A stretch of DNA of 64,000 nt from positions 137,806-201,805 of the forward strand of contig JAGWLA010000001.1 of assembly GCA_028865095.1 (NCBI GenBank), read 5' to 3'. Below are positions 26,916 to 51,487 of this stretch, piece after piece (positions within the stretch are counted from its first letter, which is position 1; each line of letters begins with the position of its first letter). Origin of the DNA: Patescibacteria group bacterium (GTDB taxonomy: Bacteria > Patescibacteriota > Minisyncoccia > Phycocordibacterales > PALSA-1337). Made by a program: the position numbers and the translations under genes. The notes under the pieces are model-generated. The model worked only from the letters and a program-made list of their open reading frames with translations, made no database searches and had not been told where the DNA came from.

Positions 26916-26989
26916 TGCGGGATCGTCTAATGGTAGGACAACGGACTCTGAATCCGTTTATCTTGGTTCGAATCCAAGTCCCGCAGCCA
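26916..26989 (+). tRNA. tRNA-Gln (CTG) with encoded CCA; integration target of the island
   Basis: Acceptor TGCGGGA/TCCCGCA, anticodon stem ACGGA/TCCGT, loop CTCTGAA, T-loop TTCGAAT. Confidence 0.85.
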
Positions 26990-27023
26990 ACACATGCACC
27001 CTGACCGGAGAGGGTCAATGAAC
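26985..27023. repeat. attL: 39-bp direct repeat overlapping the tRNA-Gln 3' end
   Basis: agccaacAcatgcaccctgaccggagaGggtcaatgaac; 37 of 39 positions match the copy at 51449-51487. Confidence 0.8.
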
Positions 27024-27069
27024 CGATTTTGGTTCTAGACCAAGACCTGTTGATGTGTAAACTATAATC

Positions 27070-27870
27070 ATGACTATCATATGGAAAGATTTTTCATCGT
27101 GGGATGGTATTGTCCGTACCACTATCACACCCGCTAGTGTTTTAGAAGTTATATCAAAAATGAAGCGAGCAGGGGAAGGTGGCTATGTCCAAGATGATCC
27201 CGGATGGCTTCATCCCCTAGAAAACCATCTCGGATATCCAATCAAAGATGCAATAAATAATCTGGCGAATGCGTTAGAAAGAGAAAATATCCGTGTATAT
27301 CATGGTTGCCGTCCGATAGACATTAGCTCATACCTGTCAAAAGGTTTGAAAGTTCATAGACGTAATGAATTGATCAGTGAGCTCAGGAAGATGGTCATGT
27401 CTGATACAAGATTGTCTCGATTTGATTTAGATGGACGAATCGGTGAGGTCAAAAAATCATACGATAATGGCAAACTTTTCCTCGTGTTTGATGATCGATA
27501 CATGATTGAATATGCAGGGCACTATCTGATATATGGTGGCGAATACATAGCAAATGTGCTCAGAGATCATTTGGAAGTTTTGCTCGAAAAAGGGACACCG
27601 ACGATAATCACTGTTGATTTGCCTGGCCGTATGATATCTAGACCAATCCTTGAAGGATTTGCTAAAGATCTTCTTACAGAGTGGACAAGACAAGTAATAA
27701 ATGAGCCAAAGTCAGTCCACATGAGAGACTGTGGTGTTGAGCTTGAATCTGATCTGGATCCGAAATATATAGTTGGTCATGAACATCCGCTGGTTATAAA
27801 AGACCCATGGAATTCTCGTCAGGAATATATTGTTGAGAATAATTGTTGTAGGACTACTCCTCAAGCATAA
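27070..27870 (+). CDS. Hypothetical protein (island-borne)
   Basis: 266 aa, no recognisable motifs. It overlaps the recombinase gene convergently by 17 nt. Confidence 0.4.
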   Translation: MTIIWKDFSSWDGIVRTTITPASVLEVISKMKRAGEGGYVQDDPGWLHPLENHLGYPIKDAINNLANALERENIRVYHGCRPIDISSYLSKGLKVHRRNELISELRKMVMSDTRLSRFDLDGRIGEVKKSYDNGKLFLVFDDRYMIEYAGHYLIYGGEYIANVLRDHLEVLLEKGTPTIITVDLPGRMISRPILEGFAKDLLTEWTRQVINEPKSVHMRDCGVELESDLDPKYIVGHEHPLVIKDPWNSRQEYIVENNCCRTTPQA

Positions 27871-29173
27871 TTTCCTTGTCTTTCATTACGATCTTGCTCC
27901 TGAGCGACTCAAGTATGTGTCGTTTCTCCTCAACCGTTCCTTCTCGTAGGATATACTTCACATACTCTTTCGGATCGGCATTCCTCGACCTCAGCTTCTG
28001 TCCTGCTCCTAGTACACTCTCTTGAAACTTCTGGAATCTATCTATCTCCGCCTTGAGCTTCTTCTTGATACCGATCTTGTCGAGATTGATGCCATCGATC
28101 ATGTTCTCTAGCTGTTTTACGAGTTCCTCCTCGCGCAGGGAAGCATTCTTGCATTCTTTGTCATTGAATCTGGTGCAGGTGTAGTAGACATACCTATTTG
28201 TACCGCCTTTGGCCAGCTTCTTGAACTTCTCGTCGGCGGTGATGCCGGAATTGCAGTAGCCACATCGCATGAGCTTGGTGAAGGCGAACTCTTTCTTTTC
28301 GCCAGTCCTATCTTTGTTGATATCGAGCTTTTGCTGAACCTTGTCGAAGAGCTCCTTGGATATGAGCGGTTCATGCCGGCCCTGATACCATGATTCGCTG
28401 CCTTTCGGGTATTCGAATCTGCCATAGTAGAAGTGATTGCGCAGGATGATGTATATATTGCTCAATGTGAGTAACTTGCCACGCTGCACCCTGAAGTCTA
28501 TCTCCTTGAGCCAGTAGAAGAGCTTTCGCCCGCTCCAGCCGTCATCTGCAACCTTCTCGAATATTTTCTTCACGATCGGTGCTCGCTTGGGATCGGTGTA
28601 TATGATCCCTTTTTCACCAACGAGCTTGCTGTTCAGGTATCCTGTCGGTGCCGGTGCAGGCCAGAGCCCCATCTCACAGCGGATCTTTAGCCCACGCTTC
28701 ACATTAACGCTCTTGTTGTCGTTCTCCAGCTTAGCTTGGCTTCCCAATATCATGAGGAGGAACTTCTCATTGGGGTTATTGGTAAATCGCTGACTGAATG
28801 TCCTGATCTCTTTCAGTTTCCCTTGATCCATGAGGTCGACGATGGATCCTAAGTCTCCGGCGTTGCGGCTTACTCTATCTGGATGCCAGACGAGGATTGC
28901 ATTAAATTTTCCATCCTTGATATCGGCGACCATCTCATTGAACTTCGGTCTTTGCCCGGTATCTTTGGCTGAATGCGCTTCACGCTTGGTATCGACTACG
29001 TTCAAGCCTTCTCGTGTCGCGAGAGCGAGCATCTCGTTTATCTGCGCATCTATCGACAATGCTTGGCGTTCATCTGATTCCGATGATTTTCTGGCATAGA
29101 GGCAATATGACAGGGTAGTTGCGATCTGAGGCTGCCTACCGCCTAGATCTACCCGTGAGGTTGCTTGTTGCAT
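27854..29173 (-). CDS. Large serine recombinase (resolvase/invertase catalytic domain + recombinase domain + zinc ribbon)
   Basis: N-terminus YCLYARKSSESDE with the catalytic Ser, block VWHPDRVSRN, and a C-terminal Cys cluster CGYC...CTRFNDKEC. Confidence 0.85.
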   Translation of the reverse strand: MQQATSRVDLGGRQPQIATTLSYCLYARKSSESDERQALSIDAQINEMLALATREGLNVVDTKREAHSAKDTGQRPKFNEMVADIKDGKFNAILVWHPDRVSRNAGDLGSIVDLMDQGKLKEIRTFSQRFTNNPNEKFLLMILGSQAKLENDNKSVNVKRGLKIRCEMGLWPAPAPTGYLNSKLVGEKGIIYTDPKRAPIVKKIFEKVADDGWSGRKLFYWLKEIDFRVQRGKLLTLSNIYIILRNHFYYGRFEYPKGSESWYQGRHEPLISKELFDKVQQKLDINKDRTGEKKEFAFTKLMRCGYCNSGITADEKFKKLAKGGTNRYVYYTCTRFNDKECKNASLREEELVKQLENMIDGINLDKIGIKKKLKAEIDRFQKFQESVLGAGQKLRSRNADPKEYVKYILREGTVEEKRHILESLRSKIVMKDKEIMLEE

Positions 29174-29287
29174 GATATGTGCCTGTTAGCTGGCATACAT
29201 CAATCAATGCCGCCACCGGTCCTAAGAGTCCAGGAGGGGTAAGTTGGTAACAATTTTTCCAAAACGGCTTTATTTCTAGCCATTTCT

Positions 29288-30838
29288 ATGGTAGAATTTT
29301 TCTTAACTATGGCCACCCTAAACTGGATCGGTAAAGAAGCTGTTGCAAACCACGACAAAGAGGTTCCTTTTAAGTTGTTAGAGAAAGTTCCAAGTGCATC
29401 AGTTGGAAAGGAATCAAAAAATCTCGTAATTCATGGCGATAACCTTGAAGCACTGAAGGCCCTTATGCCTTTTTATCAAGGAAAGATAAAGTGTATCTAT
29501 ATTGATCCGCCATACAATACCGGAAACGAGGGATGGGTATATAACGATAAGGTAAATTCTCCCAAGATACGTGAATGGTTGTCTCAGGTTGTAAAATCAG
29601 ATGACCTGACTAAGCACGATAAATGGTTGTGCATGATGCAACCAAGACTCAAATTGCTTAAGGAGCTACTTTCTGATGATGGTTTTATATTTGTAAGTAT
29701 TGACGATCATGAACAGCAGTATTTATCCCATTTAATGAACGAAATGTTTGGTGAGGGAAATTTCGTTGCTAATTTCATATGGAATCACAGGAAGTCAAGC
29801 CAGAATGATATTGATATATCACTGTCGCATAATTACACCTTTTGTTATGCACGTAACAGATCAAAGTTTAAATTGAATCCTCTTGAAATTGATGGCAGCA
29901 AATTTTCTAACCCAGACAATGATCCAAGAGGTGACTGGGTAGCAGACCCTATGGATGCACCTGCTATTCGAGAAAATTTAATGTATCCAATTACCAACCC
30001 CAAAACAAAAAAAGTCTATTTGCCGCCACCTGGTAGGCATTGGAGGTTTTCAAAGGAGAAGTTCGAGCAAGCTATAAAGGATAATCGTATTTTATTTGGA
30101 AAGACAGGTAATTCTAAACCTCAATATAAGCGGTTTAAAAGCGAAGCGGTACTAAAAGGTACTAATGTTTTTACGATATGGGATGACGTAGGAACTGCAA
30201 CTGAAGGGACACAAGAGCTCATGGATCTTTTTGATGGCAAAAAGGTTTTTGATACACCAAAACCCACTTCATTTATCAAGAAAATTCTCAAATTGGCCTC
30301 AGGAAAAGATTCGATTATCCTAGATTCCTTTGCAGGATCAGGAACTACAGCACATGCTATTTTAAGTCTAAATAGTGAAGAGAAGGGTTCAAATAGGAAG
30401 TTTATTCTTGTCGAAATGGAAGATAAAGTTGCCAGAGATATTACAGCAGCACGCGTTGAACGAGTTATAAAAAAGTATAATTTTGAAGATGGTTTTGAGT
30501 ATTGTGAACTCGCTAAGCCTCTATTCGATAAGGCGGGACAAATAAATGAATCGTGCTCATATGAAGAGCTTGCTTCTTATATCTACTTCACTGAAACACA
30601 AACGAATATCGATAAGAAGGCGATTAAAAACCCATTCATTGGTGAAAGTCACGGTATATCGTATTACCTTGTCTATACTGGCAAAGGAAAAAATGAGATA
30701 AACCGCTCCTCGCTTTCTAAGTTGAAAATAGTTGGTCAAGCAGTTATATACGCGGATCGGTGTCTTGTCGATGAAGATGAACTTAAGGAAAAGGGAATTA
30801 CATTCAAACAGATCCCGTACGAGATAAAAATATACTAA
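29288..30838 (+). CDS. Type III restriction-modification methyltransferase (Mod, N6-adenine)
   Basis: DPPYNTG catalytic motif; AdoMet motif FAGSGTT downstream (beta-class motif order). Confidence 0.8.
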   Translation: MVEFFLTMATLNWIGKEAVANHDKEVPFKLLEKVPSASVGKESKNLVIHGDNLEALKALMPFYQGKIKCIYIDPPYNTGNEGWVYNDKVNSPKIREWLSQVVKSDDLTKHDKWLCMMQPRLKLLKELLSDDGFIFVSIDDHEQQYLSHLMNEMFGEGNFVANFIWNHRKSSQNDIDISLSHNYTFCYARNRSKFKLNPLEIDGSKFSNPDNDPRGDWVADPMDAPAIRENLMYPITNPKTKKVYLPPPGRHWRFSKEKFEQAIKDNRILFGKTGNSKPQYKRFKSEAVLKGTNVFTIWDDVGTATEGTQELMDLFDGKKVFDTPKPTSFIKKILKLASGKDSIILDSFAGSGTTAHAILSLNSEEKGSNRKFILVEMEDKVARDITAARVERVIKKYNFEDGFEYCELAKPLFDKAGQINESCSYEELASYIYFTETQTNIDKKAIKNPFIGESHGISYYLVYTGKGKNEINRSSLSKLKIVGQAVIYADRCLVDEDELKEKGITFKQIPYEIKIY

Positions 30839-30843
30839 CTACC

Positions 30844-33120
30844 ATGAATCTTAAACGTTATCAAACAAACGCGATTGAAACGCTGGACAAATTCTTGGAA
30901 CTTTCCAAGAAGATGAAACCTCGCCATGCTTTTAATGAGATTACTGAACAAGTTTACAATCATGAGTGGTTCAATGATGTCCCATTTGTCTGTATCCGTA
31001 TTCCTACTGGTGGCGGTAAGACGCTCGTAGGATGTAAGTCTGTGGAGCGGATAATGAGCACTACGCTCCAGAATAAAATGGATACAGGTATAGTGATGTG
31101 GTTTGTACCATCCGATTCAATAAAAAAGCAAACGCTTGAGAAGTTTAGAGATCCGAAAGATTGGCATTATCAAATGCTTCATGAATCTTTTGGTGCAAAG
31201 ATTCAGATTCTTTCAAACGAGGAAGCTCTTACTATTTCACTGGAAAACGTAAGAGATAATTTGTGCATAATTGTAGCGAGCCTTGATGCGTTTCGTAAGG
31301 ACGCTTCCATACAGAAGAAATATAAGGTTTATAAGGAGAACGGTTCCTTGATGGGACACTTTGAGAATCTGAAGAATGATACCAATCTCGAAAAGGATTC
31401 AGATAATACGGTCATAAATTCTCTTGCAAACGTAATCCGCAAAAACAACCCACTCATCGTTATTGATGAAGGACATCATACTCAAACGGATCTCTCTGTA
31501 CGTTTTTTGTCTGATCTGAAGCCAGCTTTTATCATCGAATTTACCGCCACTCCGCGTGACGGTAGTAATGTTCTTGTTAAGACTAGTGCTTCTGAATTAA
31601 AAGTCGAGGAAATGGTGAAGATTCCTATTGTCTTAGAAAGTCGTTCGCAGTGGGAACAGGTTGTTTTAGACGGTATCACGAAGCGTAATGAGCTTGAGAA
31701 GAATGCTAAAAAACTAAAAGGAGAATATGTTCGCCCGATCGCATTATTGCAGGCTCAACCTGTTAGTAAGACGAGATTAACTGTTACTGTTGAAGCCTTG
31801 AAGGAAATGCTCCTTAAGCACAAAATTCCTGAAGAGCAAATAAAGATAAAAATATCAGGATTAGATGAACTTGAGGGGATAGATCTTTTCGATAAGAAAT
31901 GCGAGGTTCGTTATATTTTGACTGTAAATGCACTGGCAGAAGGTTGGGATTGTTCTTTTGCTTACGTGCTTATATCTGTCGCAAATCTAGGAGCGAAAAT
32001 AGCGGTTGAACAGATCATCGGTAGAGTTATTCGTATGCCGCATGCACGACGAAAATCTGACGAATCTCTCAATAGGAGTTATGTGTTTGCTTCTGCCGCC
32101 AAATTTGATGAAGCCGCTTCAAAAGTTATCAAAGGGCTCGAAGATAATGGATACAGCAGGTCCGATTTTGTGCAAGCGAGTGGAGAAAAAGATTATAACG
32201 ATCCACTAGAAGCTAAAAAAGCTGTTAAAAAAGATCTGAAGGTTCCAATAATGGCCATTGGTAAGGATAAACTCGCATTCGAGGATTTACTCAGTGAAAA
32301 TTTTGAGTTGGCGAAGGAGGATCCGGATTTCGATTTTAAAATTCACTATGATCTCGATGGGCAGGCGACTATAGATATCACTGAAGATGACGAATGGCTA
32401 CAGGGTAAACAGTTGTCATTGTCTTTTCAGTATTTGGAAGGTGAACATACAGTAGAAGAGTTGGCATCTTGGCTTGACAAAAAGTTACGTTTTCCAATGG
32501 TGAACCCTGCCGACAAACTTTCATTTATCGAAAAGGCTATACAAATACAGATCAAGAAGCATAAGCGCTCACTTCCTGAACTTTCAGTTAATCGCTACTT
32601 GTTAGCTGATCGTCTTGGTACAGTTATTACTGATCGTCTTGAGTCTCACGCCAGAAAAAACTTTGATAAGCTCATTTCATCCAAGAAAATATCGACCAGT
32701 GTTTTTGATGCTTATCCTGATACCATAGCTCTCAAGTCACCTCTAGCTAAAGTCTTCAATAAGAATCTATACGAGAGAATTGATGCTGTTAATGGTGAAG
32801 AGAGGGGGTTCGTCGAACGTATGGATCTTGGTACTCTAGACAATATCGAATTTTGGGTCCGCAATCGCGAAAAGGTCGATCCGTTTTACATACAAGGTTG
32901 GAGGAGGGGTAAATTCTATCCGGACTTTGTAGCAGTAACTAAAAAGGGAAATATTGTCGCACTTGAGTGGAAGGGGGAGGATCGTATAAGTAATGAGGAT
33001 ACTGCGTATAAGGTCGAAATCGCAAAAGAATGGGAAAAGTTAGGTAAAGGGAAACTCCACTTTTTCCTTGTACATAATGGAAACGCGGAAGAAGTTCTCA
33101 ATGCTATAAAAAATCTGTAG
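30844..33120 (+). CDS. Type III restriction endonuclease Res subunit (SF2 helicase + nuclease)
   Basis: Walker A TGGGKT, DEAH-like VIDEGHH, helicase motifs. It lies 6 nt after mod. Confidence 0.85.
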   Translation: MNLKRYQTNAIETLDKFLELSKKMKPRHAFNEITEQVYNHEWFNDVPFVCIRIPTGGGKTLVGCKSVERIMSTTLQNKMDTGIVMWFVPSDSIKKQTLEKFRDPKDWHYQMLHESFGAKIQILSNEEALTISLENVRDNLCIIVASLDAFRKDASIQKKYKVYKENGSLMGHFENLKNDTNLEKDSDNTVINSLANVIRKNNPLIVIDEGHHTQTDLSVRFLSDLKPAFIIEFTATPRDGSNVLVKTSASELKVEEMVKIPIVLESRSQWEQVVLDGITKRNELEKNAKKLKGEYVRPIALLQAQPVSKTRLTVTVEALKEMLLKHKIPEEQIKIKISGLDELEGIDLFDKKCEVRYILTVNALAEGWDCSFAYVLISVANLGAKIAVEQIIGRVIRMPHARRKSDESLNRSYVFASAAKFDEAASKVIKGLEDNGYSRSDFVQASGEKDYNDPLEAKKAVKKDLKVPIMAIGKDKLAFEDLLSENFELAKEDPDFDFKIHYDLDGQATIDITEDDEWLQGKQLSLSFQYLEGEHTVEELASWLDKKLRFPMVNPADKLSFIEKAIQIQIKKHKRSLPELSVNRYLLADRLGTVITDRLESHARKNFDKLISSKKISTSVFDAYPDTIALKSPLAKVFNKNLYERIDAVNGEERGFVERMDLGTLDNIEFWVRNREKVDPFYIQGWRRGKFYPDFVAVTKKGNIVALEWKGEDRISNEDTAYKVEIAKEWEKLGKGKLHFFLVHNGNAEEVLNAIKNL

Positions 33121-33122
33121 TT

Positions 33123-33917
33123 ATGAATCCAAGAGGGTGGACTAAAACAGAATTAGAAGAATGGCTCAAGAACCCTCTTACGCAGGAAAGAAAAGGTTTT
33201 GATCTTAAGGCAATAATTCCTCCACACGATGCGGGCAAGAATGATCTCAAAAAAGATTTTTGTGGTTTTGCAAACGGAACGGGCGGTTTTCTCTTTTTCG
33301 GTATCAAAGACGACAAGTCAATAATTGGAATAAATGAGGACAATAATTTTACGACTAGGATAAGTGAAATTGTCACGAAACACATTTTTCCTACAACAAT
33401 ATTATGGGATCTCTGTGCATGTATAAAAGTCGATAGTGGGAAATGTGTTTATGTTATTGAGATTATTGAGAGTCCTTATTGGCAAAAACCTCACGTGTTT
33501 TTCCGCGAAAGCGACGGTCTTTTCATACCCTTGAGGGAGAATGGAAATAAAAGAAACATTACGGATGGTTCTGAACTGAGAAGAATATGTTTAAAGACAG
33601 ACAATTATTATCCAGAATACAATACACACGTCCTTAATATTCTCAGAGAATTGAAAAACAAACCGAGACCATTTTTTAGTCTAACTGATGCTGTTATTAT
33701 TCAAGGGTATAAATCGTTCTTACGTTCCCAGTCTGAGACACAATACGGACAAATTCTTATCGAAATTGAGAACATAGAAATGGCTGTGGCCGAATTGAAC
33801 AAGAAGCATTTTTCAGGAGTTGCGGACGGCAATCCAATTGTTTCTGCAGATCAAGATGGTAAACTCGGCAAGTTGGTCGATGATTTTGTTTCAAACTTTG
33901 GCAGACAAATAATATGA
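33123..33917 (+). CDS. AlbA_2 / Schlafen-like divergent-AAA domain protein
   Basis: ERKGFDLK...DFCGFANGTGGFLFFGIKDD matches the AlbA_2 core (E..EFK...AFANt.GG.L..GV.D). Its start lies 3 nt after the res stop. Confidence 0.55.
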   Translation: MNPRGWTKTELEEWLKNPLTQERKGFDLKAIIPPHDAGKNDLKKDFCGFANGTGGFLFFGIKDDKSIIGINEDNNFTTRISEIVTKHIFPTTILWDLCACIKVDSGKCVYVIEIIESPYWQKPHVFFRESDGLFIPLRENGNKRNITDGSELRRICLKTDNYYPEYNTHVLNILRELKNKPRPFFSLTDAVIIQGYKSFLRSQSETQYGQILIEIENIEMAVAELNKKHFSGVADGNPIVSADQDGKLGKLVDDFVSNFGRQII

Positions 33918-37546: not shown

Positions 37547-37560
37547 ATCTCAAATATAAT

Positions 37561-38214: not shown

Positions 38215-38339
38215 TTTGAAACCAGTATTCTAGATCATAAAAATTGATGCATTGTCATCTTAAACTCTTTTTGATACTCTAATATCACAACTGAATATGA
38301 GCAGCCTAAACCCTTTGACAAGGGCATGGCTCACAAGAC

Positions 38340-43234: not shown

Positions 43235-43745
43235 ATGAGTATGGCTCTGTATGCGCATAGGGAAAAACCCAAGGCAAACAAAGCAGATTAGACGCGAGAT
43301 TTGGTTTTCCAACCTTCTCGTAGTAAATAATGCTTCTGTTTGTTTTCTTGGGATTCCTGACCGTAAATAGTCTGAGAATCCGGCCAAATCATATCAGTGT
43401 ATCCAAAGTCGGTAGCTTACGCTGCTTTCCCGGGAGCCGGTATGGTTTGTCTAAGCAGAGAAGTCTCCTCGGTGTTATCTTCGGATGCTTCTTTATCTGC
43501 TCAGCGACTGTATGTTCCTTGCAGTCGATACGCCGGTGCTTTTTTCGGTGTGAACTTTAAAAAGCGACGTTGATATAATTATAACGGTTTTGTGGAAATT
43601 TGCTAGCACTATTCTATTGCAGATTGTCATGAGCTATGCCGTTTTCTAGTTGTTCTTTTTCCGCTTCCTGTTCCGAGTCTGCTCCCAATATCTTGAGAAT
43701 AAGACACCAAAAATAGCCACGAAGACTGTCTCATTAGTGGTTCAG

Positions 43746-44228
43746 TTACATTTCCGATTTCTTGATATATCTGTATTCATGCCAGGTGAGAAGTATTACG
43801 ATGGCATCCAGGATAGTTACACCAAGTACCCATAAAGAATGGCCAAGAGTGAATTGATATGTCTGATAGGCGATGAACGTGGCCAAGACGACCATCGTAA
43901 CTGGATAGGACCACAGCTTCTTCATCAAGAGTCCGACGACGAGGAATCCGATTATAAGCCCGTGGCTTATGAGATATAGCGCAGCCAAATGCTGAAATGA
44001 TACCGATAATTGTGAAGCGGAATGCATAACGTAGTTAGCGAAAAAATCATGCGGATCTTCGGCTAGCTCCTCGGCTGTGAGAGTCGTCGATAAACCGACG
44101 ATTGTAGTCTTGCTCACGAAAAGCACGATTATTCCGGAGACGACTTCCGAAAGCGCGTGCAAGCCTTTTGAGATGACGCTGATATCAAACAATCTTCGTA
44201 TAGTCTTTTCATTGAGAAGCTTGTCCAT
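43746..44228 (-). CDS. Hypothetical integral membrane protein
   Basis: 160 aa, 4 TM helices. Confidence 0.4.
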   Translation of the reverse strand: MDKLLNEKTIRRLFDISVISKGLHALSEVVSGIIVLFVSKTTIVGLSTTLTAEELAEDPHDFFANYVMHSASQLSVSFQHLAALYLISHGLIIGFLVVGLLMKKLWSYPVTMVVLATFIAYQTYQFTLGHSLWVLGVTILDAIVILLTWHEYRYIKKSEM

Positions 44229-44272
44229 AAGCGAATCATACCACCTTTCCTAGTCCATTCCAGTTGTTCACA

Positions 44273-44302
44273 TTGACACCATATACCCTCTACGGGTATC
44301 AT
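44273..44302 (+). promoter_or_regulatory. Promoter with CsoR-type operator (TTGACA-N18-TATCAT; palindrome ATACCCtctacGGGTAT) driving leaderless csoR
   Basis: -35 and -10 hexamers and an inverted repeat overlapping the spacer/-10. The ATG lies 6 nt after the -10. Confidence 0.55.
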
Positions 44303-44308
44303 GAGTGC

Positions 44309-44575
44309 ATGAAGCAGAACATAAAGAAGAGCGTGAAGAGGCGCCTGGCCATAGCATCAGGCCAGATCAAAGGAGTCCAGGAGATGGTCGAGCAGGAGAA
44401 ATACTGCGTGGACATAATCACGCAGATAGAGGCCGTGCGCGAGGCCCTGTCCGGCGTCGGCAACCTCATTCTCCAGAACCATCTGGAGACGCATGTCGCC
44501 GACGACATCAAACATGGCAGGGAAAAGAAGGCTAACGACGAGATCCTGAAGATCTACAAGCTGGCGCAAAAGTAG
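44309..44575 (+). CDS. csoR: CsoR/RcnR-family metal-sensing transcriptional repressor
   Basis: GQIKGVQEMVEQEKYCVDIITQIEAVREAL contains the conserved Cys/His metal-ligand helix of CsoR. Confidence 0.75.
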   Translation: MKQNIKKSVKRRLAIASGQIKGVQEMVEQEKYCVDIITQIEAVREALSGVGNLILQNHLETHVADDIKHGREKKANDEILKIYKLAQK

Positions 44576-44610
44576 TTTTATAAGCCATGTATCAAACTAA
44601 TCAAAATAAT

Positions 44611-45261
44611 ATGAAGAAGATCATTACCACTGCATTGTTCCTGTCTCTCGCGGCCGTCATCAGTCTAGTTTCGGTTCGTTCGACCAACGCCCAGATGATG
44701 GGTGGATACTACAGCCAAGCACCTGCCGCTTCAGCTACATCATCGTCCGGTTCCACGGCTATGGATTCTGAAGAAGCCGCGGGCCAAGCGCTGGCGCAAA
44801 AGTTGCAGGCTAAGACTGTTGACTGCTCGAACTTAACGCAAAACGACTACCAGTCTCTCGGCGAGTACTACATGAGCCTCATGATGGGTTCCGGCCACGA
44901 TGCCATGGATAACTACATCGTCAGCCGTTACGGACAGTCTTACGACGATCAAATGCATATAGCCATGGGCGAACGCTTCTCCGGCTGCAATGTCAATGTC
45001 TCATTTCCCGCAGGTATGATGGGCTTCGGGCCGATGATGGGAGGTTATGGCTGGAGCGGCAACGGCTATCAGAGCGGCCAGAATGGCAATTGGTCAGGCT
45101 ACGGTATGATGGGCTGGGGCTTTCCTGGAATGATGAGCGGTTATGGATTCGGCGGCGGTTACGGCTGGAGCGATTGGATATTCTCGATCGTCATATGGGC
45201 GTTCGCCATAGTCGGCCTTGTCGCGCTCATACGCTGGATCGCGCTTCGCAACAAGAAGTAA
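44611..45261 (+). CDS. Exported Met/Gly-rich protein with C-terminal TM anchor; putative Cu(I)-binding
   Basis: Signal peptide, repeated MMGG/GMMG motifs, C-terminal hydrophobic helix. Confidence 0.5.
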   Translation: MKKIITTALFLSLAAVISLVSVRSTNAQMMGGYYSQAPAASATSSSGSTAMDSEEAAGQALAQKLQAKTVDCSNLTQNDYQSLGEYYMSLMMGSGHDAMDNYIVSRYGQSYDDQMHIAMGERFSGCNVNVSFPAGMMGFGPMMGGYGWSGNGYQSGQNGNWSGYGMMGWGFPGMMSGYGFGGGYGWSDWIFSIVIWAFAIVGLVALIRWIALRNKK

Positions 45262-45276
45262 AGAGTAATATACTAC

Positions 45277-45681
45277 ATGGCGCAGGCTTACAAAAACATG
45301 AAAATCAAATCATCAACTATCATACGTATCGGTTTGGCATTCGCTTTTTTGGCCAATTCGCTCACAGCTTTCATCTCGCCTAACGACTTCAAGGAACTTT
45401 TGGATGCGACATTCATCTCAGGCCTGTTGCCATTCCTTGCCTCGCCGGCATTCATATATGTGATAGGTATCAATGACGCGTTGGTTTCAGTCCTGCTTTT
45501 TTCTGGAGGCAGACGAGCCAGAATCATAGAGTGGTGGGCGCTTCTGTGGCTCATCGGCGTGCTCATTATCAAGGCGACGGGAGGGAATTACTTCGATGCC
45601 CTCGAAGAGGTGGGCTTCGCAGCCATGGCTCTGGCCATCATAGTTCACGGCAGGCATACGCGCCAGGATATCCACAGTTGA
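45277..45681 (+). CDS. Hypothetical membrane protein
   Basis: 134 aa, about 4 TM helices. Confidence 0.4.
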   Translation: MAQAYKNMKIKSSTIIRIGLAFAFLANSLTAFISPNDFKELLDATFISGLLPFLASPAFIYVIGINDALVSVLLFSGGRRARIIEWWALLWLIGVLIIKATGGNYFDALEEVGFAAMALAIIVHGRHTRQDIHS

Positions 45682-45706
45682 CATATATACCCTATGGGGG
45701 TATCAT
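45678..45706 (+). promoter_or_regulatory. Second promoter with CsoR-type operator (TTGACA-N17-TATCAT; ATACCCtatGGGGGTAT) driving the ATPase gene
   Basis: Same architecture as the csoR promoter. The ATG lies 6 nt after the -10. Confidence 0.55.
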
Positions 45707-45712
45707 GGCCGC

Positions 45713-48073
45713 ATGAATGAGACAAAGCACATGTATACATGTCCCATGCATCCGGAAGTGAGACAAGACAAGCCGGGACGATGCTCGAAATGCAGCATGT
45801 TTCTGGTGCAAGAAGGCGATTCGTCTCATGGGTATGGTGATCACGGGGAACATCGGTCCGAGCAAGCTTCAAAGAACGAATCAGAGCACGATTGTTGCGC
45901 CAATCATGTTGAAAAGGCTATGAAGGACAATGGCCACGACTATCATCATGGTGCGAAATCGCCAGTAGCCGCTCCATCTGGATCCGGAATATTTTACACC
46001 TGCCCAATGGATCCGGACGTTATATCCGACAGGCCCGGGGAATGCCCGAAGTGCGGCATGGATCTGGTGCCCATGGATATGGGTGGTGCGAATGACAGTC
46101 ATGAAGGTCACACCGGTCACGGCCGCGGAGCAGAGCAGGATTTCAAACTACGATTTCTTATCACGTTGCCGCTCGTCCTTCTGGTCACGGCTCTGTCGCC
46201 GAACATAGAGAAATGGTTCCACTTCAACCTGGCTTTTCCCGGCATGGGATTCGTGACGTTCCTTCTCGGCGCATTCGTCTTCGCATACGGTGGCTGGCCA
46301 TTCTTCAAGGCGGCCAAAGGCGAGCTCTCGCACAAGCTTCCGGCCATGATGACTCTGGTTGCATTCGGCATCACGGTAGCCTTCGGATTTTCTGTAGCCA
46401 CCACGTTCCTGTTTCCTGGAGAATCGCTCTACTGGGAGATGTCAACATTGATCTCTGTCTTTTTGCTCGGCCATTGGCTCGAGATGCGGGCTGTTCGTGG
46501 TGCTACAGGTGCTTTGACGGAATTGGCCAAGCTCATTCCACCATCCGCCCATTTGATTGGAAGTGGCAATGTCAAAGAAGTCCAAACGAGCGAGCTTGCC
46601 ATAGGCAACCGCGTACTGGTGAAGCCTGGCGAAAAGATTCCAATTGACGGCAGAGTCATTGAAGGCGAGAGTTCCGTAAATGAGTCCATGATAACCGGCG
46701 AATCGAGGCCGATTTCAAAGAAGGCCGGCGACGCAGTTATTGGCGGCTCTCTCAATCAAGACGGATCGCTTACAATCGAAGTGTCGAAGACGGGTGCCGA
46801 TACGGCCATATCGCAGATAATGAAACTGGTTCGCGAAGCCCAAGGCTCCAAGCCGAATGTCCAGCACTTGGCTGATCGCGCCGCAGCCGTTCTGTTCTAT
46901 GTCGCTATGGTCGCCGGCATCGCCTCGTTCTCATTCTGGTACTTCGCCTCGCCACAAGGTGCTATATTCGCCGCGACAGTTGCCGTGGCGGCCATCGTTG
47001 TGGCTTGCCCGCATGCACTCGGCTTGGCGATTCCGACTGTTACGTCGATCACTTCGACGCTCGGCGCCAGGAATGGCATCCTTATAAAGGACATGAAAGG
47101 CCTTGAAGCGGCGCGCAAGCTCGATTATGTTATTTTCGACAAAACAGGAACTCTGACGAAAGGGGAATTCGGTGTTGCCGATGTTATTCTCGCTAAGGAC
47201 TCGAATATAAGCCGGAATGAGATGCTGAAGCTGGCTGCGGCCGTGGAAGTGTCGTCACAGCATTCTATCGGGAAGGGCATAGTCGACGACGCCAAGAGGA
47301 AGAACATAGCCATCCCGAGCGCCAAGGGTTTCAAATCATACCCCGGCAGAGGCGCTTCCGCTGAAGTAGATGGCAAGAATGTCATTGTCGGCAACAGGAA
47401 GCTCATGGAGGAATTGAATGTCTCGATCGATGAAAGTCCGGCCGCTGGATCGAAGATCGGCACGCCAGTCTATGTTGCGGTAAATAGCTCATTCGCAGGT
47501 GTGATCCTTCTGGAAGACATTATCAGAGACGAATCCAAAGCGACTATTCAAAAGCTGCACGACATGGGCATAAAGACGGCCATGCTCACCGGCGACACTG
47601 CGGACATAGCCGAAGCGGTCGGCAAGGAGCTCGGCATAGACACGGTATTCGCCCATGTCTTGCCCGAAGACAAGGTGAACAAGGTCAAAGAATTGCAAAA
47701 TGGCGGCAACATTGTGGCTATGGTCGGCGACGGTGTCAATGACGCGGCAGCGCTCACCCAGTCCCATGTAGGAATCGCTATAGGTGCCGGTACCGATGTA
47801 GCGGTTGCATCAGCTTCGATCGTGCTCATGAAAAGCAATCCATTGGATGTGGCCAAGGCAATCGCGCTTAGTCTAAAGACGAATTCTAAAATGGTTCAGA
47901 ATCTGGCTTGGGCTACCGGCTACAACGTTTTCGCCATTCCTGTAGCGGCCGGCGTCCTCTATCCGTCGCTTGGTATTCTCTTGAGACCGGAATGGGCAGC
48001 GCTCCTCATGAGCGCTTCGTCGGTAATAGTCGTCTTAAACGCTCTCCTCCTGCGAAGGGAAAAGTTGAGTTGA
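45713..48073 (+). CDS. copB: Copper-translocating P1B-type ATPase (CPH motif, P1B-3/CopB-like) with two N-terminal CPMHPE/CPKCGM metal-binding modules
   Basis: TGES, CPH in TM6, DKTGTLT, GDGVNDA; N-terminal TCPMHPEV...CSKCSM and TCPMDPDV...CPKCGM. Confidence 0.9.
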   Translation: MNETKHMYTCPMHPEVRQDKPGRCSKCSMFLVQEGDSSHGYGDHGEHRSEQASKNESEHDCCANHVEKAMKDNGHDYHHGAKSPVAAPSGSGIFYTCPMDPDVISDRPGECPKCGMDLVPMDMGGANDSHEGHTGHGRGAEQDFKLRFLITLPLVLLVTALSPNIEKWFHFNLAFPGMGFVTFLLGAFVFAYGGWPFFKAAKGELSHKLPAMMTLVAFGITVAFGFSVATTFLFPGESLYWEMSTLISVFLLGHWLEMRAVRGATGALTELAKLIPPSAHLIGSGNVKEVQTSELAIGNRVLVKPGEKIPIDGRVIEGESSVNESMITGESRPISKKAGDAVIGGSLNQDGSLTIEVSKTGADTAISQIMKLVREAQGSKPNVQHLADRAAAVLFYVAMVAGIASFSFWYFASPQGAIFAATVAVAAIVVACPHALGLAIPTVTSITSTLGARNGILIKDMKGLEAARKLDYVIFDKTGTLTKGEFGVADVILAKDSNISRNEMLKLAAAVEVSSQHSIGKGIVDDAKRKNIAIPSAKGFKSYPGRGASAEVDGKNVIVGNRKLMEELNVSIDESPAAGSKIGTPVYVAVNSSFAGVILLEDIIRDESKATIQKLHDMGIKTAMLTGDTADIAEAVGKELGIDTVFAHVLPEDKVNKVKELQNGGNIVAMVGDGVNDAAALTQSHVGIAIGAGTDVAVASASIVLMKSNPLDVAKAIALSLKTNSKMVQNLAWATGYNVFAIPVAAGVLYPSLGILLRPEWAALLMSASSVIVVLNALLLRREKLS

Positions 48074-48081
48074 TCAAAACC

Positions 48082-48462
48082 ATGAAGCGTCTTTCCATTA
48101 TCCTCATAATCTCTCTGATCATAACCGGCATATTCGGCTTCACGTCCATGAATCATTCCGGCGGCTGTGCCTTCGCGCCCGGCGGCAACAGCGATTGTCC
48201 GCCTACGGCCATAGGCATGATAATGCATCACGTTGATTCGTACCTACAGTTCTTTTCAGCCATGCCCATGGCGGCCTCTTTGTCTGTACTGGCCATGGCA
48301 TTGCTTGTTTTGTCCGTTTTCGACGTCTGGCCTCAAGGACTCAAGCCTCCGAAACTGTCTTTCACATTTGAACGTGTCCGTGACCGCGGGGCTGGATTCA
48401 TAAAAGATAGAGATTTTATACGTTGGCTCTCGTTATTTGAGAACAGTCCGTCCTTCGAATAG
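48082..48462 (+). CDS. Hypothetical small membrane protein with Cys/His/Met residues
   Basis: 126 aa from the internal ATG after the copB stop; two TM helices. Confidence 0.4.
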   Translation: MKRLSIILIISLIITGIFGFTSMNHSGGCAFAPGGNSDCPPTAIGMIMHHVDSYLQFFSAMPMAASLSVLAMALLVLSVFDVWPQGLKPPKLSFTFERVRDRGAGFIKDRDFIRWLSLFENSPSFE

Positions 48463-48494
48463 ATTTTTGCTTACAAGCTTAATCTATTCGAAAC

Positions 48495-49007
48495 ATGAAA
48501 CCAAAAACCATATTCATCATTCTTGCTGTCTGCCTTGTCTTGGCGGGACTGCTCACATGGAGCTATATAAAGAGCGGCGCTAGTGCCGAATCCGTCCAGG
48601 GTGTCTCTCAGACTGGAGCCAAAAGCGCTCTTACAGCCACGACCACATTCTATGACCTGGGAAATATGCCTATAAACGGCGGAGAAGTGACCAAGGAATT
48701 CACGGTCGCCAATCCGACCGACAAAGATATATTCGTGAGCACGCTTATCACTTCGTGCATGTGCACGAATGCTTATATCATCGAGCCCGACGGCAGCACC
48801 AAGGGGCCGTTCGGCATGCTCGGCATGGGTTACGTGCCGCCGGCCGACGAAACTATCAAAGCCGGTGAAAGTCGGATCATCCGCGTGGTCTTCAATCCTG
48901 CCGCTCATGGCCCGGCAGGTCTGGGCATGATCGACAGATTCATCACTCTCACCGACTCCGCGGGCGGCACGCTTGTGCTGGAGATAAAAGGAGTCGTGAC
49001 GCCTTAA
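48495..49007 (+). CDS. DUF1573-domain exported protein
   Basis: Signal peptide, and a TSCMCT motif corresponding to the SCGCT signature of DUF1573. Confidence 0.5.
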   Translation: MKPKTIFIILAVCLVLAGLLTWSYIKSGASAESVQGVSQTGAKSALTATTTFYDLGNMPINGGEVTKEFTVANPTDKDIFVSTLITSCMCTNAYIIEPDGSTKGPFGMLGMGYVPPADETIKAGESRIIRVVFNPAAHGPAGLGMIDRFITLTDSAGGTLVLEIKGVVTP

Positions 49008-49011
49008 CACC

Positions 49012-49791
49012 ATGAAGAAACTCATTATAGGTTTAAGCGTACTTGCGGCCGCCATAATAGGCGTCGTCGTTCTGCAATACAGCTCTGGCTTGTCCGGCTT
49101 CCTGTGGAGCATGTCGGGCGGCGGTGCTTGGCTCTTGCCACTGGTTGCATTCTCGGCGCTCCTTGACAGCGTCCACCCGTGTTCGTTCTCCATCCTCCTC
49201 ATAACGATCGCATTTCTATTCGCCATGCAACTGGGTCGAAAGAAAATATTGGCAGTCGGCGGTCTCTACATAGTCGGCATATTCGCGGCTTACTTCGCTA
49301 TAGGCGTGGGCGTCCTGCAGGTCATACACCTGTTCAATACGCCGCACTTCATGGGTAAACTGGGAGCGGCTTTGCTCATCGGCTTCGGCCTGCTCAATAT
49401 CATCGACGCCATATTCCCGAAGTTTCCGCTCAAGCTGAAGATACCCGATGCGGCACACGCCTCAATGGGGAGGTTGATAAATGCCATATCTCTTCCAGCC
49501 GCGTTCGGCCTCGGCCTTCTGGTCGGCCTGTGCCAATTCCCATGCATGGGTGGTCCTTACCTTATGGTCATCGGCCTTCTGCACGATCACATGACATACT
49601 TCCGCGGCGTCGGCTATCTGTTCCTGTACAACTTGATATTGATCGCTCCTCTGGTCGCCACGCTATGGATCGCCGCCAATCAGACGATGATAGACAAGGT
49701 CAAGGAATGGAAGACGCGGAGCATGAGGAATGTGCATCTGTGGGCCGGCATAGCCATGATCATTATCGGCATAGCGGTGCTATACATCTAA
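49012..49791 (+). CDS. CcdA/DsbD-family thiol:disulfide electron-transfer membrane protein
   Basis: About 6 TM helices, with conserved Cys in TM1 (VHPCSF) and TM4 (CQFPCM). Confidence 0.6.
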   Translation: MKKLIIGLSVLAAAIIGVVVLQYSSGLSGFLWSMSGGGAWLLPLVAFSALLDSVHPCSFSILLITIAFLFAMQLGRKKILAVGGLYIVGIFAAYFAIGVGVLQVIHLFNTPHFMGKLGAALLIGFGLLNIIDAIFPKFPLKLKIPDAAHASMGRLINAISLPAAFGLGLLVGLCQFPCMGGPYLMVIGLLHDHMTYFRGVGYLFLYNLILIAPLVATLWIAANQTMIDKVKEWKTRSMRNVHLWAGIAMIIIGIAVLYI

Positions 49792-49795
49792 GACC

Positions 49796-49963
49796 ATGAA
49801 TGCCAAAAAACGATTCAAGCTCGGCGATCTCATCGCCAAGATAACGAAAGCGCTCGGCATTCCTCATTGTCTCAAATGCGAGAAGCGCAGAGTCATCCTC
49901 AATGACCTTCAGGAAGCCGGATTGCAAGAGACTATCAAGAAATTAAAAGATTGTTGCAAATAA
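49796..49963 (+). CDS. Small Cys-containing protein (55 aa; below ORF-track cutoff)
   Basis: ATG...TAA with HCLKCEK and a C-terminal DCCK. The gap between ccdA and the next gene is otherwise unexplained. Confidence 0.3.
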   Translation: MNAKKRFKLGDLIAKITKALGIPHCLKCEKRRVILNDLQEAGLQETIKKLKDCCK

Positions 49964-49966
49964 ATT

Positions 49967-50803
49967 ATGGAAGAAAAACGAAATACATTAACCTTGCCGG
50001 GAGCGATCATAATCGCCGGCACGTTCATCGCTGTCACTATTCTCTTAAAGTGGGCTCCAGCCAAAGAACAGTCGAGTATCCAAGCTCCTATAAACCAAGT
50101 ATCGGCGACCATTATCGATGGAGGTCATATTCTGTCCCTTAAGACTGAACAGGCCATGCTTGCAGAACTCCAGAAAGACGGGGTGATCGATGGTTCAAAA
50201 TTGCCGCAGGTGACCGAGCTCAATCTGCTCTGGGCATTCGGACTGGCGAACGAGAACCCCATTCTCGAGAACGGGCCTATCGCCGACCTGCGCTACGGGG
50301 GTCCCATGAACATGGCGTCTGTGGGCGGCTGGACGGTTTCGGTCGGATCTCCGTCTAATCATATGGACAAGCATGTGCTTGCAACCCTTACTCCGGATCA
50401 GCAGTCCCTCGTCGAGAAAATATCGAAAGGAATATATAGACCGTGCTGCGACAACTCGACATATTTTCCGGACTGCAATCACGGCATGGCCATGCTAGGG
50501 CTTCTCGAATATCTCGCTTCACAAGGTGTGACTGAAGGAGAGATGTGGAACGCCGCTCTTACGGCAAATATGACGTGGTTTCCGGATGCGTATCAGACGA
50601 TTGCTGAATATACGAAGCAACAAGGCATGTCGGCAAAGGACATAAGCCCGCAGACGATTCTCGGCCAGGACTATTCAAGCGCCTCAGGTTTCGCCAAGAT
50701 CAGCTCGCAGGTGCCACAACAGCAGAAACAGAGCTCGCAGAGTTGCGGCGTGAATGCGAGCACGCCGGCGGACGTGCCGAAGCAGCCGAGCTGTGGAGTA
50801 TAG
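49967..50803 (+). CDS. Hypothetical membrane-anchored protein with Cys cluster
   Basis: N-terminal TM and a YRPCCDNSTYFPDCNHG motif. Confidence 0.45.
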   Translation: MEEKRNTLTLPGAIIIAGTFIAVTILLKWAPAKEQSSIQAPINQVSATIIDGGHILSLKTEQAMLAELQKDGVIDGSKLPQVTELNLLWAFGLANENPILENGPIADLRYGGPMNMASVGGWTVSVGSPSNHMDKHVLATLTPDQQSLVEKISKGIYRPCCDNSTYFPDCNHGMAMLGLLEYLASQGVTEGEMWNAALTANMTWFPDAYQTIAEYTKQQGMSAKDISPQTILGQDYSSASGFAKISSQVPQQQKQSSQSCGVNASTPADVPKQPSCGV

Positions 50804-50829
50804 ATTATCTTCATGATACTATTTTTCAA

Positions 50830-51291
50830 ATGGATGGTTTCTTCATATTCTGCGCTCAATATCTCTTCATAGTGCCGGTCTTGATCCTCGGCATCTACTT
50901 TCTACTGCAGCCGCGAGCAAACTGGAAGCACATGGCTATATTCGCCATATCGGCTGCGTTGCTTGCATATCTCATAGCCGTGATCGGCGGGTTGCTCTAC
51001 TATGATCCTCGCCCGTTCGTCGTAGGTAACTTTACGTCACTCATCCCGCACGCGCCGGACAATGGTTTTCCATCTGATCATGCGCTCCTCGTATCGGCGA
51101 TCGCAATGATCGGAACGATTTGGAACAAGAGATTGGGTCTCGCTCTCTGGTTCATCGCCTTGTTTGTCATGGCGGGAAGGGTATACGTCGGGGTGCACCA
51201 TCCTATCGACGTCATCGGAAGCGCGGTTATAGCCATTGGAGCAGTTGTGGCGATGAAGCAAGTCTTATCTAGAGCAACAAAGATCACATAA
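50830..51291 (+). CDS. PAP2-family phosphatase (membrane)
   Basis: PAP2 motifs PSDH and GRVYVGVHHPIDV. Confidence 0.7.
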   Translation: MDGFFIFCAQYLFIVPVLILGIYFLLQPRANWKHMAIFAISAALLAYLIAVIGGLLYYDPRPFVVGNFTSLIPHAPDNGFPSDHALLVSAIAMIGTIWNKRLGLALWFIALFVMAGRVYVGVHHPIDVIGSAVIAIGAVVAMKQVLSRATKIT

Positions 51292-51448
51292 AATGAGAAT
51301 GAGACACGCTAAATAGCCCTGGAAACTGTCTCATTAGTCTCATTTGGTATAATGAAGCCCTGACCAAGACCCGTCGTCTACTACTGTATGTGGTCGCCAA
51401 GAAACCCTTGTGGTGTCTTGAGCCACGTGGTTCTAGACCGGAGAGTCC

Positions 51449-51487
51449 AGCCAACGCATGCACCCTGACCGGAGAAGGTCAATGAAC
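51449..51487. repeat. attR: second copy of the 39-bp direct repeat, preceded by a degenerate tRNA 3'-end fragment
   Basis: agtccagccaacGcatgcaccctgaccggagaAggtcaatgaac. Confidence 0.8.

Follow-up and report, generated by a model that had tools for sequence, protein, structure and literature searches.

Introduction

As integration sites, tRNA genes were found for 14 of 297 serine integrases, versus 44.5% for tyrosine integrases, by Mageeney et al. (2020, PMC7192596), who described such use by serine integrases as unreported before and asked for its proof. As a precedent, phiRSM uses a small serine recombinase to integrate at tRNA-Ser (cited in PMC7192596), and among the tycheposons of Prochlorococcus 27 of 937 carry a large serine recombinase (LSR) instead of a tyrosine recombinase (bioRxiv 10.1101/2020.12.28.424599). 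Genomic islands of Patescibacteria are known from composition-based prediction, carried out without integrase or tRNA analysis (PMC12455944). The present analysis concerns a stretch of 64,000 nt from a Patescibacteria group bacterium (GenBank assembly GCA_028865095.1, contig JAGWLA010000001.1, positions 137,806 to 201,805 of the forward strand), which as a whole we call the window and whose positions are counted from its first nucleotide. An original prediction, made from the sequence of this window, had placed a 24.5-kb genomic island at the 3' end of its tRNA-Gln gene. We put the probability at roughly 80% that this region is an integrative mobile element that its own LSR placed immediately downstream of tRNA-Gln(CTG).

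Anatomy of the tRNA-Gln locus

The region (Table 1) has the make-up of a tRNA-associated island: it abuts an intact tRNA 3' end, has a direct repeat at its far end, differs in composition from its surroundings, and carries a recombinase gene near one end. To its left lie the housekeeping genes prfB, ftsE, ftsX, and pyrG. The original prediction had bounded the island by 39-bp direct repeats with 37 of 39 identities; an alignment of both copies bears this out and sets them inside a longer block of 43 nt (40 of 43 identical), of which the left copy carries a trailer containing CCCTGACC-GGAGAG-GGTCA that matches the motif beside LSR-linked tRNAs of other species. As to the concern that the repeat might be a common dispersed element, its 31-nt core, with up to three mismatches allowed, has only two sites in the window and none in 100 shuffles. 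The motif predicted just inside both ends is also there, since GGTTCTAGACC occurs exactly twice in the window, at 27031 and 51429. Because the GGTTCTAGACC-N9-AGCCAAC that precedes the right repeat copy is colinear, in a gap-free alignment, with the tRNA's own GGTTCGAATCC-N9-AGCCAAC, the degenerate tRNA 3' end noticed at that copy is real; left of AGCCAAC the likeness to the tRNA amounts to about 9 matches in 20, weakly significant taken alone. The predicted drop in GC content between the repeats stood on one side only. From 0.61-0.67 at 21-27 kb it falls sharply after the tRNA, to 0.35-0.41 at 29-38 kb and 0.46-0.55 at 39-51 kb, but it does not recover at the right repeat, remaining at 0.42-0.57 to about 54.05 kb before reaching 0.65-0.67.

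The LSR gene had been predicted close to the left end, and lies, intact, 0.86 kb inside it. Its product joins a resolvase-type catalytic domain to Recombinase and zinc-ribbon domains (PF00239, 1e-21; PF07508, 5e-17; PF13408, 7e-9), and in the family alignment the catalytic residues R28 and S30 (Y-A-R28-K-S30), D99, R100, and R103 are invariant among 25 homologues. The profile match in PDB is the SPbeta integrase (E=8e-18, nearly full length), and the best Foldseek matches of the AlphaFold (AF2) model are the SPbeta, Bxb1, PhiC31, and LI integrases. That model is of medium confidence (pLDDT 71) and has beta strands at residues 302-333 followed by long helices at 348-424, so that the zinc-ribbon region may carry an inserted coiled coil. 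The nearest LSRs in GenBank phages are at most 30% identical to it, as is likewise the case for the large terminase subunit (TerL) of the element. The 120 best LSR clusters are all 58-80% identical and about 440 aa long, and those that bear a name come from Patescibacteria or Paceibacterota. Domains and catalytic residues alike suggest that this LSR would have catalysed the integration; no recombination directionality factor was identified.

Association of the recombinase with tRNA genes

Related loci (labelled L0xx to L1xx) were collected from assemblies, JGI metagenomes, and IMG/VR; with duplicates removed, they comprise 153 distinct LSR copies. A downstream tRNA is present in the available sequence for 68 of these, and in 67 of the 68 it is convergent on the 3' end of the LSR gene, the geometry that the island at tRNA-Gln has in the window. 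The median distance from LSR to tRNA is 1.3 kb; 17 copies lie within 300 nt of the tRNA, the nearest at 72-100 nt. Where at least 6 kb of downstream sequence is available (47 copies), a convergent tRNA occurs within 6 kb in 27, while none of the 76 copies with at least 6 kb of upstream sequence has a tRNA within 6 kb on that side. The targets are tRNA-Gln (28), tRNA-Ser (14), tRNA-Arg (9), tRNA-Trp (5), and tRNA-Glu (4), followed by those for Lys, Asp, Leu, Met, and Asn. Comparison of the loci thus speaks strongly for integration of the LSR clade at tRNA 3' ends. We define the family by an LSR of about 440 aa that is at least 45% identical to other members and whose 3' end points towards that of a tRNA gene, and the window element belongs to it.

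In the closest relative (L081/L082, LSR 80% identical) the recombinase gene is 96 nt from tRNA-Gln; the trailer keeps GCACCCTGACCG, and the 18-mer TTTGGTTCTAGACCAAGA of the window's left end is found identical and at the same distance in L081, amid surroundings that have diverged. Another locus at tRNA-Gln with a prfB-ftsEX flank (L169) repeats the window's layout of LSR and of the Mod and Res genes of a Type III restriction-modification (R-M) system. When trailers are aligned from the discriminator base, those adjacent to an LSR share, in register and whichever tRNA is targeted, the pattern C(C)A-N2-3-C[AT][TA]G... and then ...GACC-(G/T)AGAGG-..., a motif missing from most pyrG-linked tRNA-Gln genes that have no LSR beside them.

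At L182 15926-16013 ARAGORN reports a tRNA-Ser with the unusual anticodon ACT, which adjoins an LSR-type trailer and has a normal tRNA-Ser(GCT) 200 nt away. This tRNA copy may have been brought in by an element or been rearranged. In L132 a 5.3-kb LSR element lies between two tRNA-Met(CAT) genes of the same strand (729-801 and 6079-6153), which have a T-arm/acceptor stretch of 24 nt in common (23 of 24), and the distal-end motif occurs there twice, at 982-1056.

The insertion site in related hosts

The PyrG proteins nearest to that of the window are at most 71% identical among GTDB genomes, where they belong to Paceibacterota or Parcubacteria, and 75-78% identical in the whole protein collection. 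In the closest hosts (L171/L172 and L173) the synteny of the window is kept through the tRNA cluster, prfB, ftsEX, pyrG, and tRNA-Gln, and the 3' half of tRNA-Gln is nearly identical. Divergence sets in directly after ...CCCGCAGC, and in each of these hosts low-GC DNA begins at that very point. What follows differs between them: L171 has at 13956-15475 a different LSR of 502 aa, 36% identical to that of the window and convergent on the same tRNA-Gln, and L173 has from 13963 on unknown genes and a small resolvase. Because the closest hosts diverge right after tRNA-Gln into low-GC DNA, and because the trailer motif stands at many tRNAs, the tRNA-Gln 3' end is, judging from these alignments, an insertion hot spot, and the window's 43-nt block is by the same token element-type and not conserved host sequence.

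Downstream of tRNA-Gln in several Patescibacteria, the tRNA 3' end is repeated in inverted form (GGATTCGAAC...), and sequence like GGAAGGGGTCGGGGAAC comes after it (L033, L067, L078, L166 at about 2980-3150, L004, L056, L070, and L073). These copies may belong to a convergent intron-containing tRNA gene or to another repeat family.

Element backbone and LOOT RNA

Homologues of the ParB-methyltransferase, small terminase subunit (TerS), and TerL of the window element lie no more than 10 kb from the LSR in 24, 26, and 16 of 88 metagenome loci, respectively; the 80 pyrG control loci have none. In the IMG/VR loci the order ParB-methyltransferase, TerS, TerL, LSR, (cargo), tRNA(-) is nearly universal. 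The window conforms to it, with all four genes on the minus strand in the canonical order and the structured LOOT RNA on the plus strand, and with some 9 kb of inserted cargo separating the LOOT RNA from the LSR. PHROGs assigns TerL to phrog_38 (5e-66), TerS to TerS families, and further gives phrog_498. The original prediction had read these genes as the remnant of a phage packaging module; the packaging genes are indeed present, but since they recur with the LSR in one order and are absent from the controls, they are a conserved family backbone and not debris. The window element is a member of a large family in which the backbone is fixed and the cargo varies. The backbone runs from ParB-methyltransferase, TerS, and TerL through the LOOT RNA on the opposite strand to the LSR with its 3' end facing the tRNA; cargo is placed behind the LOOT RNA and in the interval from the LSR to the tRNA.

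The LOOT RNA was found by Rfam in 6 of 9 related loci as well, and a covariance model of our own retrieved 37 distinct copies in LSR loci; among 80 control loci it retrieved 3, precisely those 3 that also carry this LSR, and none without it. Over the 37 copies the structure is well kept, with 93% of cells paired and compensatory (double) changes in 21 of 24 pairs. LOOT usually lies on the strand opposite to the LSR, often 130-210 nt upstream of it, and its conserved parts are the same in elements at different tRNAs. An open reading frame (ORF) begins 14-89 nt after LOOT in all 28 loci checked and differs from locus to locus: SNase, nuclease-like (by eye), membrane, and subtilase-like proteins were seen, and in the window PDC-S18. 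LOOT thus behaves like a conserved leader of a variable cargo slot. A role as a guide for target choice was considered and set aside, as inspection gave no convincing complementarity to the att core. Loci with LOOT include L083, L087, L089, L140, L163, L165, L170, and about 30 others.

Proposed integration and alternative explanations

In the mechanism that we propose, the LSR would bring the tRNA 3' end together with a site on the element. This site would consist of the T-arm-like GGTTCnAnnCC, N9, AGCCAAC, and then the trailer with CCCTGACC-GGAGAG-GGTCA; half of the target would come from the T-arm and acceptor end of the tRNA itself. The tRNA would stay intact, and the element-borne trailer would end up directly after it. 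The circle junction attP would accordingly be expected to read ...GTGGTTCTAGACCGGAGAGTCCAGCCAACRCATGCACCCTGACCGGAGARGGTCAATGAACCGATTTTGGTTCTAGACCAAGACC..., and the restored attB to read tRNA-Gln ...AGCCAACRCATGC...GAACTGAAGCACAATG. Thin evidence, namely that similarity falls sharply left of AGCCA and that the trailer is conserved in register, would put the crossover at the tRNA 3' end itself or a few nucleotides beyond it, with T-arm and acceptor end as the host half-site and GGTTCnAnnCC as the element half-site. What the sequences show is the anatomy, the family, and its association with tRNA genes; catalysis by this LSR, the crossover position, the tandem accretion described below, and any mobility that the element may have at present are inferred.

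Several refinements were tried and discarded. A dyad-symmetric attP of 60 bp centred on CATG, with outer GGTTC..GACC / GGTC..GAACC, received no support from a gapless test against shuffles. Nor do we claim successive recombination products at the five GACC junctions where CCCTGACC or TCTAGACC meets GGAGAG or AAGACC: this combinatorial reading was made by eye, and L121 does not reproduce it. There is no sigma-70-like site for an outward promoter at the right end across attP, and the alignment score of a third, oldest tRNA-Gln fragment at 53.96-54.00 kb is no better than that of 44% of random windows.

The far-end copy of the 43-nt repeat would, on our proposal, be the trailer of an earlier related element, and the low-GC stretch at 51.5-54.05 kb its remnant; the locus would then read tRNA-Gln, newest element (27.0-51.45 kb), and scar and remnant of an older element (51.45-54.05 kb). 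The right-hand repeat is probably such a scar because the block is element-type, GC stays low to about 54.05 kb, and in L121 the distal repeat contains a fragment of an LSR gene. This locus carries a 5.2-kb element between repeats at tRNA-Lys. Its repeat is 174 nt long (87% identical) and takes in the final 6 nt of the tRNA, the trailer, a terminator, and the final 23 LSR codons; its distal copy is preceded, as in the window, by a degenerate T-arm. The only reading of that copy is as the left end of an older element, most of which has been deleted. Trailer-type scars without an LSR exist in L026 and others, and six IMG/VR contigs hold two LSR copies each. With low-GC DNA running on for a further 2.5 kb and a repeated block of element type, the NUDIX gene at 51497 is probably not native flank, and the empty site proposed in the original prediction, tRNA-Gln followed directly by this gene, may never have existed.

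The contigs with two LSR copies are 3300000970_000154, 3300014205_009253, 3300014208_000734, 3300042286_000458, 3300032737_000190, and 3300009873_002614 (loci L176/L196, L182/L191, and others). The copies lie 10-35 kb apart; some have the same orientation and are candidate tandem arrays, others are at different tRNAs.

Classical integration in a single step is a rival explanation of the repeats. The native attB would already have held the 43-nt block, attP the same, with the crossover within it, and the genes from NUDIX to HAD would be a native flank of low GC. Sharp repeat boundaries on both sides and an identity of 93% are what a textbook shared att core would give, no LSR fragment lies to the right of attR, and a DUF5672 homologue (56%) stands among ordinary host genes in L171. 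Yet the block carries a family-wide element motif that is found after many tRNAs, what follows this tRNA-Gln directly in the two closest hosts differs markedly from the window, the GC content at 51.5-54.05 kb contrasts with 0.60-0.70 in the host, and scars of the same layout arise in L121 by serial insertion. We regard this explanation as rather unlikely.

That the element is a decayed prophage, with LSR, ParB-methyltransferase, TerS, and TerL left over from a temperate phage of Patescibacteria, the structural genes replaced by cargo, and the whole no longer a functional unit, seems to us improbable. TerL and TerS are clear phage-type proteins, 67 relatives of the LSR are on IMG/VR contigs classed as viral, and very low-GC cargo of about 9 kb separates TerL from the LSR in the window. 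Decay is at odds, though, with a four-gene core that keeps one order in dozens of loci with no portal or capsid genes adjacent, and with related elements, delimited on both sides, that show no structural genes either: besides L121, L087 has an element of about 11 kb between tRNA-Gln and host chaperone genes, for which no distal repeat was found. Virion genes were recognised neither in the window element nor in these two relatives, where a partial check, with no systematic PHROG scan, showed no structural genes in the Pfam calls of L087 and no terminase homologues in L121. Across 27.0-51.4 kb, where Pfam was applied to every ORF of at least 80 aa and PHROGs to the unknowns among them, only TerS and TerL are phage-like, which, with no virion structural or lysis genes, is not the gene complement of a prophage; no replication module was recognised in the window element. 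An integrase, packaging genes of its own, and no full virion module recall the phage-inducible chromosomal islands (PICI), a likeness in gene content only. On the whole the elements resemble satellites or cargo carriers more than prophages.

A tRNA island of a tyrosine integrase since lost, with the LSR as unrelated cargo or as an enzyme for inversion or resolution, is very improbable. Targeting of a tRNA 3' end together with a displaced tRNA-like fragment is a hallmark of tyrosine integrases (PMC4383910), and according to PMC7192596 it is not a known trait of serine integrases; but ORFs tiling the whole island give no Phage_integrase match in Pfam, and the recurrent LSR-tRNA geometry, with LSRs as near as 72-100 nt to the tRNA, speaks against this idea. 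An artefact, whether a chimeric contig, as a metagenome-assembled genome with so extreme a GC contrast might contain, or a chance or dispersed repeat, is scarcely credible, given DNA of host composition on both sides within one contig, a repeat that is unique in the window and unexpected by chance, and an architecture that matches many independent contigs.

Against placement by the element's own LSR, with accretion in tandem, weigh the following points. Twenty of the 47 LSR copies with at least 6 kb of downstream sequence have no tRNA within that distance. LSRs normally leave a shared core of 2 bp to about 16 bp; the 43-nt repeat is atypical for them, is longer than any LSR core known to us, and calls for the extra assumption of a tandem scar. 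The right-hand repeat in the window, as said, has no LSR fragment, the genes at 51.5-54 kb have no homologues in other elements, and the DUF5672 homologue of L171 belongs to a host neighbourhood. The T-arm likeness of the distal arm is statistically weak when taken by itself. LSR att sites are short (about 40-60 bp) and imperfectly symmetric, with a 2-bp crossover, but the reconstructed attP gave no significant dyad symmetry, the best gapless value being a marginal 10 of 14 around CC|GG (p ~0.04). No empty site was found through pyrG neighbours in GTDB genomes, whose relatives reach at most 71% and none of which has the trailer, because the databases hold no genome of the same species, the nearest PyrG being 78% identical. 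JGI metagenome contigs gave no match to the att core, the collections searched yielded neither an excised circle nor an attP junction or attB sequence, and the source is a metagenome-assembled contig. In IMG/VR, TTTGGTTCTAGACCAAGA gave two matches, both by chance and in unrelated contexts, and exact look-ups of the window's NUDIX, 241-aa ORF, and LSR proteins in the contig index returned no record.

Cargo genes and other features of the window

Two parts of the cargo had been recognised in the original prediction and were recovered by our annotation. The Type III R-M system consists of adjacent Mod (N6_N4 methyltransferase) and Res (ResIII helicase-nuclease) genes, found with both PADLOC and Pfam, and the copper/thiol module contains CsoR and a CopA-type P-type ATPase with HMBD domains, along with DUF2127, two membrane proteins, unknown membrane ORFs, a 278-aa ORF, and PAP2. 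The three co-directional ORFs at 33123-38214 are possible defence genes. The 1210-aa and 217-aa ORFs among them and several ORFs of the copper module have no match in Pfam, PADLOC, PHROGs, NCBIfam, or PDB; the 266-aa ORF next to the left end has none in these collections either, and no homologue in related loci. Cargo in the relatives comprises Shedu, a Bil-type ubiquitin-like system, BglII, Type I and Type III R-M systems, and copper modules.

The 7.6-kb copper module is bracketed by a second pair of direct repeats, of 45 nt; as a unit it may be nested or have been acquired on its own. Its right repeat copy continues into GTCTCATTAGTCTCATTT, and 10 related elements have this motif close to their distal end, in every case on the opposite strand from the LSR. 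In L084 a copper module stands beside a related LSR and includes a homologue of the 278-aa ORF with 64% identity. CsoR-operator-like ATACCC-N4-GGGTAT sites occur in the module at 44281 and 45685. There, just before the start codons of csoR and copA, are two copies of ATATACCC-N4-GGGTATCATG (44281-44318 and 45685-45722), which look like CsoR operators; the start of csoR is probably the ATG near 44303 and not the TTG at 44264. Four pyrG loci without LSR (L020, L059, L075, and L077) have homologues of CsoR and the CopA-type ATPase (35-50%) 0.2-6 kb downstream of tRNA-Gln, and copper modules are thus recurrent at the pyrG-linked tRNA-Gln hot spot.

Elsewhere in the window low-GC patches (0.41-0.53) occur at 17000-20190 and 3000-7000. 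The former adjoins a minus-strand tRNA-Met (20191-20265) at the tRNA's 3' end and contains an ORF of 612 aa without Pfam match; the trailer of this tRNA contains CCTGACCG, and a T-arm-like GGTACGAATCCCGTACG follows about 100 nt further. This patch may be another old insertion scar.

Table 1. Features of the tRNA-Gln locus, in window coordinates
Feature	Position	Strand	Basis or remark
tRNA-Gln(CTG), target gene, own CCA end encoded	26916..26989	+	ARAGORN; Rfam tRNA 66.1 bits
attL, left copy of the 43-nt direct repeat	26984..27026	+	Last 6 nt of the tRNA and 37-nt trailer
GGTTCTAGACC, T-arm-like motif just inside the left end	27031..27041	+	
266-aa ORF between LSR 3' end and attL, orphan cargo	27070..27870	+	
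LSR, 439 aa, intact, putative integrase	27854..29173	-	Pfam Resolvase/Recombinase/Zn_ribbon_recom
Type III R-M: Mod 29288-30838, Res 30844-33120	29288..33120	+	PADLOC MTase_III 7e-174, REase_III 2e-88; Pfam
Schlafen/AlbA_2, 264 aa	33123..33917	+	Pfam PF04326 1e-12
1210-aa and 217-aa unknown ORFs, co-directional with the Schlafen/AlbA_2 ORF	33914..38214	+	
LOOT RNA (RF03000), structured, part of backbone	38303..38421	+	Rfam 80.5 bits, threshold 46.4
PDC-S18 candidate defence protein (NucS-like N-terminus and DUF5655), first ORF after LOOT	38473..39384	+	PADLOC 7.5e-95; Pfam
ParB_N-DNA methyltransferase 41888-43387, TerS-like 41476-41907, TerL 39948-41567	39948..43387	-	
Left copy of the 45-nt direct repeat, 82%	43694..43738	+	
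Copper/thiol module	43746..51291	both	Pfam
Right copy of the 45-nt repeat (51294-51338), running into GTCTCATTAGTCTCATTT	51294..51345	+	
T-arm-like segment of the element's putative distal arm, GGTTCTAGACC-N9-AGCCA, colinear with the tRNA 3' end	51429..51453	+	L121 arranged analogously
attR, right copy of the 43-nt direct repeat	51448..51490	+	Direct-repeat search
Low-GC stretch past attR: NUDIX, NUDIX, DUF5672, HAD hydrolase	51497..54050	+	Pfam; GC

Comparison with known systems

The family is large and apparently undescribed: no published description of an LSR/terminase/LOOT family or of tRNA-targeting LSR elements in Patescibacteria turned up in the limited literature searched, which is no more than an absence of evidence. 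That an island lies at a tRNA is nothing unusual in itself; what deserves attention is the tRNA-specialised LSR clade in the candidate phyla radiation (CPR), the backbone with its LOOT RNA, and the signs of tandem accretion. A fuller proposal, which we think less likely than not, is offered tentatively: that these are previously unrecognised, Patescibacteria-specific mobile elements, possibly satellites with a complete terminase; that the LSR clade reads the T-arm and acceptor end of at least 10 tRNA species as an att half-site; and that LOOT is the leader of an exchangeable slot for defence and other cargo.

An LSR clade so consistently convergent on tRNAs would be a testable system for tRNA targeting by serine integrases, treated until now as a trait of tyrosine integrases, and its many naturally retargeted members (at Gln, Ser, Arg, Trp, Glu, and other tRNAs; 45-80% identical) would bear on the evolution of specificity and on integrase engineering. 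The LOOT RNA gains a genomic home and a testable role. A core of TerS, TerL, and ParB-methyltransferase without virion genes suggests a satellite-like parasitism of CPR phages, of which we found no description in the literature searched. Genomes of the CPR are of about 1 Mb, and even such ultra-small genomes would stack acquired defence and metal-resistance genes at a tRNA hot spot.

Among described elements, the tycheposons are alike in carrying cargo or being satellite-like, in gathering at tRNA genes of streamlined genomes, and, for some, in carrying terS. They belong to a different phylum, however, whereas here an LSR is the rule, the backbone is made up of ParB-methyltransferase, TerS, TerL, and LOOT, and a replication module was not found. 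With the phage satellites PICI and capsid-forming PICI (cfPICI; PMC10085698) the elements have in common a size of 5-25 kb, an integrase at one end, a TerS of their own, the absence of tail and lysis genes, and defence cargo; they differ in that the window element has TerL as well as TerS, that no capsid, portal, or replication genes were recognised, and that no helper phage is known for it. The phiRSM system likewise brings a serine-family recombinase to a tRNA gene 3' end, but its enzyme is of resolvase size, the "S-Core" type of a filamentous phage, while the window LSR has Recombinase and zinc-ribbon domains.

The integrases of SPbeta (SprA/YokA), Bxb1, PhiC31, and A118/LI and the Ccr recombinases of SCCmec share with the window LSR the three-domain enzyme, the catalytic serine and arginines, and a gene at the edge of the element. 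As its insertion site SCCmec likewise uses a conserved gene, at the 3' end, where it leaves repeats of 15-18 bp. Unlike these systems, LSRs of the window type have tRNA genes as targets, the repeat in the window is 43 nt long, and the identity to LSRs of GenBank phages stays at or below 30%. Closest in layout are the Islander-type tRNA islands of tyrosine integrases (PMC4383910): there, as in the window, the tRNA 3' end is used, the tRNA stays intact, a tRNA-like fragment and a repeat mark the far end, the integrase gene lies at the tRNA-proximal end, composition is foreign, and elements accrete in tandem. The window departs from them in having an LSR and no tyrosine recombinase, and in a repeat that lies almost wholly downstream of the tRNA, with an overlap of 6 nt.

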